Below, one piece after another: positions 8,562 to 62,629 of a stretch of 64,000 nucleotides of DNA. Positions within the stretch are counted from its first letter, which is position 1. Every line of letters begins with the position of its first letter. The notes beneath the pieces are model-generated. The model saw only the letters and a list, made by a program, of their open reading frames with translations, searched no databases and had not been told where the DNA came from. The position numbers were made by a program, and so were the translations under genes. Location: assembly GCA_951406725.2 (NCBI GenBank), contig OX597818.1:117862001-117926000 (forward strand), in the 5' to 3' direction. Source of the stretch: Octopus vulgaris. Taxonomy: Eukaryota.

Positions 8562-8774
8562 TCGCCATGTTGATTCGTTAGCTACTGCACGCATTTTTTT
8601 CTCTCCTTCTTTCTGTGTTTTTTTTTCTCTCTGTGTATCTTTCTGTTGAAGAGCGTAGGCTCGAAACGTTAAAGACTTGTTTTATTTATATTTCCTGAGC
8701 GCCATACTAATACATTTGTTCGTTTATTTTCCACCTGCCTTCGTCTTTTGTCTATTTTCATAAAGCTTCCCGTT
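8562..8774 (+). mobile_element. Short non-autonomous Penelope-like element (family H1) in (TA)n
   Basis: ~210 bp island between long (TA)n tracts; homologous to 13300-13497 and, reversed, 60272-60462; contains a hammerhead-like motif. Confidence 0.65.
8638..8675 (+). ncRNA. Minimal type-I hammerhead-like motif (A6U core variant)
   Basis: tcttt-CTGTTGA-a-gagc(gtag)gctc-GAAAC-GTT-aaaga: 5-bp stem I, 4-bp stem II, palindromic ACGT helix III. Confidence 0.65.
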
Positions 8775-8842
8775 ATATATATATATATATATATATATAT
8801 ATATATATATATATATATATATATATATATATATATATATAT

Positions 8843-11800
8843 AGCAGAGAACATTGTGGGACAACTGGCCTGGATACATCGTCTTCAGAACCAGGGGCAA
8901 TCACAACAGCACTCAAGACCACCACAATCAAGGGACCCAGGGTGGCCACCGCTGACACCAGCCCAGGTGCCACACCGACAGCCTTTATTGAAACCCCAAA
9001 TATCTCACCAGTGCTTCTGCTGAATGTCAGAGGTCTGGTGAAACCCACTAATATGAGTAAAATTCCTTACCTTAGGGACTTAAGCACAAGCAACCATGCA
9101 ATATGCATAGCGCTGACTGAAACGCACCTGTCAAGCAGTATAGCAGATGCAGAAATACACATACCAAAGTATACTGTTTTTCGGTCAGACAGGAAGGAAA
9201 GAACTCATGGTGGGGTTGCCCTGTACGTCCGTGAAGATGTCACACCCATAGTACTGTTGACACACTCAAACTCAGTCTGTGACACACTGATAGTACACAT
9301 GAAACAACCGAAAATAGTAATATGTGTCACATATCGGCCACCAGACACTGCTAGTCATGAAGGAGTGTTTGAAGATAGCCTCAGAAGAATAGAAGAAGTC
9401 CTGGACAAACTGGACCAGGGTAACCCCATTCTACTGCTGGGAGATTTTAACCTTCCGAAAGTCAAATGGCCAGATGGCCATCTCCTCCCTGGAATGACAT
9501 CACTTGAACAGAGACAGACAGAGTCCTTGTTGGCTCTCACACGCAAGTTTTTCATGGAACAAGCAGTGCTTCGGCCAACAAGAGGTGAGAATGTCTTGGA
9601 CCTCTGTTTCACAAGCAACCTGATGCTCATCCACAACATAATGGTAACACCAACAATTCTCTCAGATCACAACTTAGTAGAGGTAATGATATATGGTATG
9701 AGAGAGTTAGTTGAGACGCAGCCATTAGAAAATACCACAGGCCTATCCAGTCTAAACTTCCATAAGGCAAACTGGAAGAAGATCAACGAAGAGATCCGAA
9801 AACATGACTGGAGTGACTTCATCACCACACAAGACACCAACACACATTTCCAACATTTCATGACAACAATACAGAACATATGCCATAAGTTTGTCCCGGA
9901 GAAAAAAGCCAGCGGGCATAGGAACGTTATTCCCAGAGACAGGAAAATACTTATGAGGCGAAGAGCTAAGCTCTCGAAGCAACTGAATGCACGGCAGAGA
10001 AACAATGAGGGACTCCACCTGAAACTTTTTGAAACGGAAACTGCACTCAAACTTTCCTATGAGAAGGAGAGGGCAGAGAGAGAAGCCAGGGCCATAGAGA
10101 ATATTAAAACAAACCCTAAAGCCTTCTTTAAATTTGCGAAAGAAACCACCTCGGTACACTGCAAGATTGGCCCACTCTTTGATAAAAAGGTCTCTCTAAC
10201 TGAGGACCCCCAAGGGATAAGTGAAATACTAAAGGAACAGTATAAAAGTGTGTTCACATCCCCTCTGGGGCACATGCAAATCACAAACCCAGAAGTTTTC
10301 TTTGATGCCACAACACTCCAAAACCAAACAACAACCATCGACCACATAGACATAACAGAGAGGGATGTAATATCTGCCATAGAAGAAATGAGAATAAACT
10401 CAGCTGCTGGACCAGATGGATTCCCAGCAGTCCTCCTAAGAACATGCAGGCATGCCCTAGCGGGACCACTGAAGAAGCTCTTCAGTGGTTCCTTGGCTAA
10501 CGGTAAACTGCCCAGGGCGCTAAAAGAAGGCACCATATGCCCTTATCCACAAAGGAGGGAGTAGAGCAGAGGCCAAAAACTACAGGCCAGTCTCCCTGAC
10601 GTCACACATAAGTAAGGTCATGGAACGAATCATCAGAAAAAAACTGATCACGTTCCTCGAAGAAACTAACCGTCTCACTGACACACAGCATGGCTTTCGC
10701 CCAGGAAGAAGCTGCCTTACGCAGCTGTTACAACACTACGACTGGGTACTGAAACAACTACTGGATCGCTCACAGGTGGATGTGGTATATCTCGACTTTG
10801 CGAAGGCCTTTGACAAAGTCGACCACGGAGTGATATGTCACAAATTACTCAGACTCGGCATAACAGGAAAAGTAGGTGAGTGGATACATGACTTCCTGAA
10901 GGACAGAAGCCAGATGGTTGCAGCCAATGGAGCCCTCTCGGGAAAGACACCAATAGCAAGCGGGGTGCCACAGGGCACAGTCTTGGGACTCTTGCTGTTT
11001 TTGGTGGCGCTCTCTGACATGCCCTTGGTAGCACAAACAACATCCCTCACTAGCTATGCTGATGACACAAAGGTAGCACAGGCAATCAAAAACCCAGCTG
11101 ATGCTGACCTTTTACAACAAGATCTGGATGCCATATACAAATGGGCTGAAGACAACAACATGCAATTTAATGCTGGTAAATTTCAAGCCTTACAATATCA
11201 AGCTGTAAACACATATACATTACAACACAACTATACTGGTCCAGGAGGGATCGAAATCCCAGTATCGAAATCAATACGGGACCTGGGGATAGACATGAGT
11301 GACGATGCATCTTTTTCTTCACACATCGCGAAGGTGGCGACAATGTGCAGAAGACTCACTGGCTGGATCCTGAGGACATTCCGGACAAGAGACTGCGAGA
11401 CCATGTTGACACTATGGAGGACATTTGTCCTAAGCCGCCTGGACTACTGCTCCCAACTGTGGTCACCGCATAGTGTCAAACTAACCACAGAGCTTGAGAC
11501 AATCCAAATACATTTCACCAAGAGGATTTCCACCATGAAAGAAAAGAACTATTGGGAGAGGCTTAGGGAACTCAATTTGTACTCCTTGGAACGAAGACGA
11601 GAGAGATATGCAGTGATATACATATGGAAAATCCTGGAGGGACTAGCACCAAATTTTGGAATTGAGAGCTGTTCCAATCCCCGTACAGGACGTCACTGTG
11701 TGGTGCCAAAGGTCCCGTCTTCCACATCCAGGGTAAGGAGCAGATACTGTAATAGCCTGGGGTTCAGGGGCCCTCAGCTGTTCAACAAACTGCCAAGAAA

Positions 11801-12040
11801 ACTAAGAGATCTACATGATGCGGATGTGGACATTTTCAAAAAACATCTAGACAAGCTGCTTTCCGGGATCCCAGATGAACCCACTGCAAGGTACGAAGGT
11901 AACCTAAGGGCAGCAGCTACAAACTCTCTCTTAGATCAGTGGCCAGCCACGGCAAACTGGACTTAGAGAGGGTAGCAACAATGGCGGTACCCCAGCATGG
12001 CCTCAACCGGATGGCTGAAACAAGTAAAAGAGTAAAAGAG
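8843..12040 (+). mobile_element. CR1-group LINE: probable ORF1 end + near-complete ORF2 (APE + RT) + intact 3' tail, flanked by (TA)n
   Basis: APE motifs LLNVRGL, ALTETHL, GGVALYV, YRPP, GDFN, LDL, SDH; RT motifs SAAGPDG, QHGF, YLDFAKAFDKVDH, GVPQGTVLG, YADD; frameshift near 10540 splits ORFs 8942-10564 and 10620-11966. Confidence 0.93.
8942..11966 (+). pseudogene. LINE ORF2 endonuclease/reverse transcriptase with one apparent frameshift
   Basis: ORFs of 540 aa and 448 aa joined through IHKGGSRAEAKNYRPVSLTSH in the second frame. Confidence 0.9.
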
Positions 12041-12357
12041 TATATATATATATATATATATATATATATATATATATATATATATATATATATATATATA
12101 TATATATATATATATATATATATATATATATATATATATATATATATATATATATATATATATATATATGTGTGTGTATATATATATATATATATATATA
12201 TATATATATATATATATATATTATATATATATATATATATATATATATATATATATATATATATATATATATATATATATATATATATATATATATATAT
12301 GTGTGTGTCTCTGTGTGTGTGTGTGTGTGTATGTATATATATATATATATATATATG
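12040..12357. repeat. (TA)n/(TG)n microsatellite
   Basis: Direct reading. Confidence 0.95.
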
Positions 12358-61199: not shown

Positions 61200-61626
61200 T
61201 AGCCATATTGAGATGGCTTACTTTACATTGTCGAGCGGTTAATGTTTACATCTCATTCAGAGATTTAATAATGCTTGCAGACAGTCTTTCGAAATCAGTG
61301 ACGGAAGTTACTAGAAAAACACATATATTTGCATACAGGCCTTCCCTTTCATCGTAATCTGGTGATTACCGCCCGTTGACAAAAGGCAACAACCTCGAAA
61401 CTGCAGCCCGTGCGTATCACTTAGGCTTACGAGAAAGGGATGGCCTCCCTTTGCAAATAACATTAGGGCACAGATATTGTGCCTAAAGCCAGCTGGAGAC
61501 GATGATCTCCTGGGGCTAAAAGCTACAGTAACACCCACCCATTGTGGTTAGCCATATTGAGATGGCTATTATACTTTACATTGTCGAGCGGTTACTGTTT
61601 ACATCTTGTTCAGAGATTTAATAATC
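61200..61626 (+). mobile_element. Family H4 element with partial-tandem terminal repeat; hammerhead-like motif 61371-61413
   Basis: 61200-61272 repeated at 61549-61625; gcccg-TTGACAA-aagg(caacaa)cctc-GAAAC-tgca-GCC-cgtgc. Confidence 0.7.
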
Positions 61627-61642
61627 CTTAATTTTTATTTTC

Positions 61643-61679
61643 CTAAAATTTTCGTTGCGTCTAGCAACCTTTTCAATAG
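61643..61679 (-). ncRNA. Minimal hammerhead-like motif (U3-A8 core) of another family (H5)
   Basis: cta-TTGAAAA-g-gttgc(tagac)gcaac-GAA-AATT-T-tag. Confidence 0.5.
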
Positions 61680-62629
61680 TTTTGTGTGTGTCCGTTATTT
61701 ACACTGCGTACACTTTTGTTTGTTTGTGCGCATGTGTGTGGGTCAGTGTGTGTGTGTGTGTGTGTGAGCCTGTGTGTGTGCGTGTGTGTGTATGTGTGTG
61801 TGTGCCTATACATGCATGCATGTACGTATGTATGTATGTGGGTGTTTGCATGTGTACGTATGTAAAAGGCACAAAAAGAAAATGACTCTCTATACATTGT
61901 TACCTTAAAATAAACGATCTGGAAATTTTTCCAAATAATTTCTCTGTATGAATAGCAAGAGTCTACATGTTTTTGAAGTGCTCTGTGATAGAAATTTCCT
62001 ACTGTTCAAGAAATCTGTATAGATGAAATCTACTTTCTTTCACATTTGGTTTGCAAATTTTGAATACACTTTGATAATAGTTTAAAAGAATCCTTACGGA
62101 TTATTTCGCAGAATACATTATTATCTTTCTGTTATTAATTATTTTTTCTAAATGCATTGCTAATTAATCTGCAAACCATTCCAGCTTGAAATTTATCTTT
62201 CCATTCCACAATTGTAAGCAGTTTTAGAATATAAATTCCTTATAACAAAAGTTCCCATATGTATTATTGAATTGCATGTTTCTGGGAGGTTACTGAACAT
62301 ATTATAGGTCAGATCATTCCATGTAAAACTGATACCTGTTTCAGCATTTGATTCAGTAAGACGGTTAAGAGGATTTAATGTTGAATCAAGTAATAACGGT
62401 CTTAATTATAAATGATTTAGTGGTAAAGCATTAATAGATATAGCTGTGCTCCTGGCAAGCCTCTTTTATTATCAGGGATTTGGGAATTATCGGTAAGCAC
62501 AAAATAACTAACAAGATTTATCCATAAATAAGTTATATAATCAGATTCTTTATCCATTGAGCGTTATGTGTACAATTGCTAATACCCCAAAGATTCGCCG
62601 TAATTTTCAGTTAGTCATTGTTATTTAAA

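Follow-up and report, generated by a model that had tools for sequence, protein, structure and literature searches.

The genome of the octopus Octopus vulgaris carries a large population of repeats whose 3' ends hold hammerhead ribozyme motifs. The 64,000-nucleotide stretch analysed here, called the window (GenBank assembly GCA_951406725.2, contig OX597818.1, positions 117,862,001 to 117,926,000), contains nine such motifs in seven repeat families, named A to G. Very probably, two of these families (A and D) are the ends of coding Penelope-like elements (PLEs) and the other five are likely copied by PLE enzymes, which best explains the whole set of observations. Family B is on balance best read as a predicted RNA polymerase III (Pol III) tRNA-derived short interspersed element (SINE) that is mobilised by a Penelope-like enzyme instead of a long interspersed element (LINE), via a captured hammerhead-bearing pseudo-long terminal repeat (pLTR), in a genome with about 10^5 hammerhead motifs of many PLE-system families, among them a lineage that has spread recently and has U in place of the core base A6 (A6U). 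Hammerheads of PLEs have been described before, whereas their load in this genome and family B are new.

Hammerhead folds of the seven families

Each island of the window was searched genome-wide, which gave 39 to 3197 first-look candidates per family, and 30 loci per family were retrieved; the set is biased, since it consists of the loci most similar to the window copy. Three family A rows without the motif region were left out (n=27). The majority sequences have the following cores and helix III palindromes: CUGUNGA and ACGU in A, CUGA(A/U)GA and ACGU in B, CUGACGA and ACCCGGGU in C, CUGAUGA and ACUCAGAGU in D, CUGAGGA and AUCAUAUGAU in E, UUGAAAA and AAUU in F, and UUGACAA and ACUGCGGU in G. 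A preliminary description of the window had counted about six families and had taken the helix III palindromes from single copies; the number is seven, and the palindromes of D and E are replaced by those of the family majorities given here. The family core pattern is retained in 18 of 27 copies of A, 17 of 30 of B, 19 of 30 of C, 29 of 30 of D, 9 of 30 of E, 25 of 30 of F, and 23 of 30 of G.

The catalytic positions G5, G12, A13, A14, U16.1, and H17 and the paired 3-8 position are kept in all seven majorities, and the stems vary. Pair 3-8 is C-G in five families (A to E) and U-A in two (F and G), with position 7 free; the core of the PLE-type minimal type-I hammerhead is found in the majorities of B, C, D, and E (C3-G8) and of F and G (U3-A8). 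C and G are related to each other and have compensatory differences, including C3-G8 versus U3-A8. Of the 49 key pairs in the seven families, 48 are conserved, whereas 20,000 shuffles that dealt the 3' strands among families retained 28.7 on average. The self-duplex of helix III has a predicted energy of -1.7 to -14.9 kcal/mol in all families except F. Pairing is incomplete in places: the 10.1-11.1 pair beside G12 is mismatched in C and D, helix I contains a C.U mismatch in G, and helix I is only 3 bp long in E and F. Minimum free energy folding of the bare motifs gives a hammerhead dimer for D and G only, among the seven. The motifs are modelled as minimal type-I hammerhead folds with a palindromic helix III, located in the 3' ends of seven repeat families, and cleavage is predicted; the link to PLEs and to a minimal, dimer-type architecture proposed in the preliminary description is supported.

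Minimal hammerheads in the pLTRs of metazoan PLEs, with solo motifs derived from truncated elements, an extra base, a palindrome, and U3-A8 variants, were described by Cervera and de la Pena (2014; PMC4209133). The octopus motifs share with them the type-I topology, the palindromic helix III, the extra base after A9, the U3-A8 pair, and the presence of many unrelated families per genome, mostly as solo motifs. The A6U core of A and the mismatched 10.1-11.1 pair of C and D are not among the variants in the accessible part of that paper.

A number of points weigh against this reading or against strong catalysis. The normally invariant A6 is replaced by U in all 25 readable cores of the 27 family A copies; related motifs with A6 and the helix II stem of family A exist at loci L237 and L280. 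Helix II of D consists of 2 bp plus A.A. In F, helix I is only 3 bp long, the triplet is UUU, and self-pairing of helix III is unfavourable (+2.2 kcal/mol). Since the helix registers were picked by pairing, the comparison of pairs across families is in part circular. A6U in A and the short helices in D and F would speak for weak cleavage activity. Published minimal motifs are of low activity (PMC4209133), and in a frog study eight of nine retrozyme dimers remained uncleaved.

It is possible, though rather unlikely, that the folds of several families no longer work as ribozymes and are kept as protein-binding or reverse transcriptase (RT)-positioning structures or by hitchhiking with the pLTR. 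This would suit the weak helices of D and F and the fixation of A6U in A, although copies 97-99% alike exist there; it would also suit the fact that copies span the cut site, and catalytic mutants of an anole PLE were without effect on insertion in vitro (PMC11167929). The same anole motif was cut when protein was added (PMC11167929), however, and the seven majorities keep the catalytic positions and a compensated 3-8 pairing while the stems and position 7 vary, which argues against this alternative.

Families A and D and coding Penelope-like elements

Upstream of the family A motif, loci L004 and L005/L217 have an RT (YIDD), a CX4CxxC linker, and a GIY-YIG domain with a Pfam E-value of 0.0011, below the curated cut-off. 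These domains mark A as the terminal 3' part of a PLE of the Neptune/Nematis type, present as 5'-truncated copies. It shares with the PLEs of that clade (PMC8557442) the RT, the CX2-5CxxC linker, the GIY-YIG, a hammerhead near the 3' end, and the association with (TA)n, and differs from them in its A6U core.

Family D runs upstream into an RT-endonuclease frame. A search anchored on the D protein gave 103 scored loci at 93-96% identity, the query locus aside, and the hammerhead lies downstream in 29 of the 30 loci retrieved by this protein. Locus L376 is a pLTR-ORF-pLTR arrangement (ORF, open reading frame) with 727 open codons that encode CxCX5C, RWK, and DKT. The D protein has no match in Pfam or PDB, and no RNA data set is listed as containing family D. 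Because these three motifs are the Hydra motifs of Craig et al. (2021; PMC8557442), D is assigned, from its motifs, as the pLTR of a young Hydra-clade PLE; an assignment as Nematis-like was dropped on the match to that motif description. Shared features with the Hydra clade are a C-terminal endonuclease region, the three motifs, (TA)n insertion, a pLTR hammerhead, a tail, and inverted 5' copies, whereas D differs in the length of its tail (67 nt vs 30-40) and in its unusually short helix II. The preliminary description had regarded all the motif carriers as non-autonomous; this holds for B, C, E, and G, while A and D are 5'-truncated ends of coding PLEs, a case allowed for there under 'solo pLTR'.

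All eight D-type matches in an unselected sample start no more than about 11 nt from the 5' edge of the hammerhead and form head-to-head pairs (L230:1897-2020, L231:3751-3869, L245:3687-3811, and L272); D copying may tend to halt just past the fold. Another young PLE family of the Neptune type (L288, L293, and other GIY-YIG loci) has many open frames of 781 aa and a U3-A8 hammerhead near its 3' end. An eighth hammerhead family, located outside the window, has a CUGAAGA core, a long helix II, and ACUCGGAGU as helix III; it was found in 22 of 30 loci, many of them head-to-head, and one copy stands behind a Hydra-like ORF (loci L402-L431 and L322:700-1100).

Insertion signature

Two preferred 3' ends are found in B, C, D, F, and G, one in A, and a spread in E. 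Among 30 loci each, C has 12 long ends and 16 that are 39-41 nt shorter, G has 12 and 14 (39-41 nt), and D has 7 and 22 (67-68 nt). The doubles of B in which both arms reach the 3' region combine one long and one short end in 14 of 14 cases, and the D doubles of the unselected sample have the same form. A flanking repeat of at least 7 bp accompanies 11 of 16 inverted B loci vs 3 of 240 mismatched pairs. Head-to-head matches in unselected DNA make up 6 of 14 for B, 8 of 9 for D, 2 of 7 for F, and none of 13 for A, compared with 11 of 318 for four other SINE queries; the excess of B over the other SINEs has a Fisher p of 0.002 at the locus level. A (TA)4 run within 25 nt of the 3' end is present, among 30 loci per family, in 27 of D, 21 of A, 19 of E, 11 of C, 10 of G, 8 of F, and 1 of B, against 4.8% of random positions; (TA)n targeting is family-specific.

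The tail and the inverted copies of PLEs have been described (PMC8557442; the tail also in PMC11167929), as have two RT start sites and nicking of both strands (PMC11167929). The long and short 3' ends and the inverted copies observed here agree with this anatomy. What tells against PLE copying of the remaining families is that tblastn over all retrieved DNA and a set of 30 GIY-YIG loci gave no coding PLE with a tail like that of B, C, E, F, or G; the 30 loci are mostly one Neptune-type family with a different U3-A8 hammerhead. The PLE partner of these five families is therefore inferred solely from the insertion anatomy.

Non-coding units of families C, G, and E, and the upstream part of family F

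Families C, G, and E are non-coding, terminally redundant, retrozyme-like units of 355-444 nt. Their own end is repeated at the start in 15 of 30 copies of C, 16 of 30 of G, and 15 of 30 of E, with a period of 355-361 nt in most redundant C and G copies and 423-444 nt in most redundant E copies. The hallmarks of non-LTR retrozymes, namely a non-coding unit of 150-450 nt with one type-I hammerhead in tandem or partial tandem, are found in all three. Family F extends for about 600 nt upstream through CA-rich sequence, and two long stretches of it contained no PLE ORF; the window copy of G (period 349) sits inside F.

Animal non-LTR retrozymes (PMC7229834; bioRxiv 10.64898/2026.07.22.740005), which have been presented as PLE derivatives (bioRxiv 10.64898/2026.07.22.740005), resemble C, G, and E in their non-coding units of 350-440 nt, the single type-I hammerhead, the partial tandems, and the proposed dependence on PLEs. 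In contrast to them, C, G, and E are mostly dispersed copies of 1-1.5 units with PLE tails and not long arrays, have motifs of the minimal type, are known here from DNA alone, and have no parent pLTR that could be found.

That all seven families are free retrozymes, spreading via circular RNA made by their hammerheads and independent of PLE ends, is improbable. In its favour, the closed units of C, G, and E (355-444 nt) are about as long as mussel retrozymes (PMC7229834), and one B locus (L070/L323; G000:C30:17291657-17292696) has one head and then five tails in tandem, repeated about every 190 nt. For A and D the idea is refuted by their upstream continuation into PLE ORFs; B has a 5' end fixed at its head and shows no unit closure, and the cut site is distant from both of the fixed 3' ends, the long and the short.

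Family B, a tRNA-headed element with a hammerhead tail

In family B, a tRNA-like head is joined through a (TAA)n spacer to a hammerhead tail, and the three parts form one element. A search with the head alone found the hammerhead tail behind it in 27 of 30 loci, and in 684 kb of unselected DNA, the tail follows all four heads. The head, a feature absent from the preliminary description, has A and B boxes, and the body is non-coding and shorter than 500 nt. A run of four or more T occurs in the B majority only in the 3' flank and not internally; the other six families have internal runs. Among 30 tRNA loci of the genome, tRNA-Arg is the best match of the head (z 7.6). B may be among the octopus SINEs described in 1994.

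The identity of the head is weakened by the close scores of tRNA-Ala and tRNA-Cys, by Rfam, which does not call it a tRNA, and by ARAGORN, which at a relaxed threshold flags 5 of 30 B heads and does so inconsistently. SINEs are further recognised by a 3' end shared with a LINE or by a poly(A) or simple-repeat tail; B has no such tail and ends at two fixed, non-repetitive 3' ends of the PLE type. No partner for the B tail was found, either PLE or LINE. The B head and tail are both covered by contigs from four runs, but such contigs carry no information on strand, ends, or level and are given no weight here.

It is quite improbable that B is an ordinary tRNA SINE which depends on a LINE for copying, such as an R4/Dong-like element associated with (TAA)n, and carries the hammerhead as passive cargo. 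This account would explain the tRNA-like head and the target-site repeats, one copy is located behind a LINE 3' end (L063), and the missing PLE partner favours it. Yet the only simple repeat, (TAA)n, is internal rather than at the 3' end, the doubles pair long with short ends without exception, and head-to-head pairs are far commoner than in the four other SINE queries.

The closest published arrangement is that of the schistosome Sm-alpha and Sj-alpha SINE-like repeats (reviewed in PMC6765202), in which a Pol III promoter is also followed by a hammerhead. These are described as tandem units processed by the ribozyme, and no PLE partner is named in the accessible part of the review. B, unlike them, occurs mostly as monomers or inverted doubles; its 5' head is fixed, its microsatellite is internal, and both its minimal motif and its ends are of the PLE type. 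A PLE-type hammerhead joined to a tRNA-like start looks to be new here. No literature on a PLE-mobilised tRNA SINE, octopus hammerheads, or A6U was found in a search that most subscription papers and supplements lay outside. The tandem B tails of L070/L323 are a natural substrate for dimer cleavage.

Proposed mechanism

We infer PLE-driven, target-primed copying from two sites on uncut templates. A PLE protein would nick AT-rich DNA on both strands, and reverse transcription would start at either of two sites downstream of the hammerhead, which would yield the long and short ends as well as the head-to-head doubles; early stops would leave islands of 150-450 bp. The templates are taken to be uncut RNA because the copies span the predicted cut site. 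The hammerheads would likely cut only as dimers or with the help of protein, for instance in tandem transcripts. Cutting of C, G, and E would release unit-length RNA able to circularise. B is likely a SINE, transcribed by Pol III, that took over a pLTR and thereby recruits the PLE enzyme. As the fold depends on a partner, a monomeric B transcript would not cut itself.

The pairing of a SINE with a PLE, if true, would add a second engine of SINE spread. B would also be a natural test of the role of PLE hammerheads, as the fold is kept although cutting would split the promoter from the tail. The A6U lineage, if it cuts, would widen the known catalytic consensus. The core variants (A6U, U3-A8, and the 2-bp helix II), together with a young Hydra PLE with long open frames, are material for tests of protein-assisted cleavage.

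Motifs of the window

The hammerhead-like layout is present at all nine sites of the preliminary description, whose positions mark the edge of helix I and not the core. The core base C3 or U3 lies at 8643 (+), 13374 (+), 22400 (-), 23082 (+), 27463 (+), 32735 (+), 43502 (+), 61376 (+), and 61676 (-). The family features of the window are as follows:

8563..8773 (+): family A copy 1, 5'-truncated pLTR from the 3' end of a PLE of the Neptune/Nematis type, with (TA)n tracts on both sides; hammerhead 8638-8675 with the A6U core CUGUUGA
13302..13495 (+): family A copy 2, from an older subfamily; its core (13374) fits the family, helix I down to 3 bp
60270..60462 (-): family A copy 3, hammerhead middle deleted, absent from the preliminary description; ends approximate
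22182..22493 (-): family E, partial copy of a unit (about 435-444 nt) that is non-coding and terminally redundant; hammerhead 22403-22350 with CUGAGGA core and a mismatch in helix III
22750..22833 (+): tRNA-like head of family B, in which a short 5' hairpin and both boxes (A and B) are present; predicted Pol III promoter
22834..23026 (+): spacer of family B, (CAA/GAT/TAA)n, which belongs to the element itself
23027..23186 (+): family B tail with short 3' end; hammerhead 23077-23122, G8U, core likely dead
27364..27530 (+): family D solo pLTR piece, assigned to a young Hydra-clade PLE, with (TA)n tracts on both sides; hammerhead 27459-27496 with intact core and a helix II of 2 bp plus A.A
32666..32941 (+): family C, partial copy of a non-coding unit of 357 nt with terminal redundancy; hammerhead 32731-32771 with intact core and wobbles in all three helices
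47910..48058 (+): family C 3' fragment without hammerhead; ends approximate
43419..43619 (+): family B copy lacking the head, with an inverted 5' piece (43419-43483) followed by the tail in direct orientation and a long 3' end; hammerhead 43497-43542 with intact core and a single mismatch in helix II
61199..61626 (+): family G more-than-unit copy inside F, period 349, overlap 78; hammerhead 61370-61414, U3-A8, U16.1 and G10.1 lost, likely dead
61627..61900 (-): family F 5' part, CA-rich, 5' end approximate; hammerhead 61679-61643, U3-A8, helix I of 3 bp, triplet UUU
61059..61198 (-): family F 3' part, separated by the G insertion, long 3' end

Most window copies are worn. The family core pattern is exact at four of the nine sites, twice in A (8643 and 13374) and once each in D (27463) and F (61676); three are in full family condition once 13374, with its shortened helix I, is excluded. 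Copies 32735 and 43502 keep the core and have wobble or single-mismatch changes, and copies 23082 (G8U) and 61376 (U16.1 and G10.1 gone) have lost catalytic bases. The placement of the motifs in or beside (TA)n tracts holds for four sites (8643, 13374, 22400, and 27463) and not for the other five; the (TAA)n at 23082 is internal to the element.

A descriptor with a palindromic helix III, composed after the motifs were known and accepting A6U and U3-A8 cores, gives 5 matches in the window against a mean of 0.03 (maximum 1) in 100 local dinucleotide shuffles. The strict first descriptor, with an exact CUGANGA core and an ordinary helix II, gives none in the window, which counts against the hammerhead assignment and is attributed to decayed copies and unusual cores. 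Chance matches in AT-rich, microsatellite-rich DNA, which this null result and the broken consensus of single copies might suggest, can be dismissed given the excess over shuffles, here and in the 600-kb sample described below, and the restoration of the fold in the family majorities.

Among the 150 of 258 Rfam matches listed for the window there is no hammerhead, and those listed are microsatellite artefacts; a Rfam search of a young D locus also found nothing. Rfam thus misses the PLE-type hammerheads of this genome. The window has no PLE ORF, as previously stated: tblastn with three PLE proteins has a best E-value of 0.023, and the RT ORFs present are of the LINE type. The match concerned (62181-62450) was dismissed as noise.

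Genome-wide load

The load was estimated from sixty 10-kb stretches at round coordinates (599,900 bases). The seven family profiles give 27 motif-spanning matches in this sample and none in reversed DNA, that is, one family motif per 22 kb; the profiles of C, E, and G have no match. The window is about three times denser for these families, and the rate of one motif per 7 kb counted there would be too high for the genome. The descriptor finds 18 intact-looking matches in the 600 kb vs 0.1 in shuffles, several of them from further families. Scaled to a 2.8-Gb genome, with Poisson intervals that ignore clustering and with inverted pairs counted twice, this corresponds to about 126,000 (83,000-183,000) family motifs, 84,000 (50,000-133,000) intact-looking motifs, and about 33,000 (13,000-67,000) B loci. 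The genome load is estimated at roughly 10^5 hammerhead motifs, in line with the large unannotated load that had been anticipated. Xenopus tropicalis has about 9,000 minimal hammerheads, the maximum in the accessible text of PMC4209133, which the octopus estimate exceeds about tenfold. In the giant squid, 235 Rfam hammerheads were listed (PMC6962438), and an octopus repeat annotation (PMC13282606) lists PLEs and SINEs, with no mention of ribozymes in its accessible part. Further families were seen by descriptor alone at L267:9700-10000, L241:8200-8500, L274:9750-9950, L275:4793, and L237:8996, several of them head-to-head.

Other features of the window

The window is rich in (TA)n tracts, tRNA-type SINE copies, and LINE remains, and ARAGORN finds no tRNA in it. 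A large LINE remnant with APE and RT in two frames lies at 8844-11966 (+), directly behind family A copy 1, and further LINE pieces are located at 2891-4652, 18966-20054, and 24914-26661. A very abundant tRNA-type SINE with internal (TA)n, with about 180 matches per Mb, is present at 28583-29010, 52694-53115, and about ten more sites in the window; a second SINE family has a similar density. An inverted repeat pair of 326 bp with 97% identity is found at 49610-49935 and 50747-51070, and a direct repeat of 314 bp at 50299 and 52068. In two copies of one repeat on the minus strand (49514-49640 and 49933-50050), GAAAC precedes CUGAUGA, with cores at 49583 and 50002; in the copy at 49933-50050, an upstream CUGUCC could pair with GGACAG ahead of the core, possibly as a split-core type of hammerhead.

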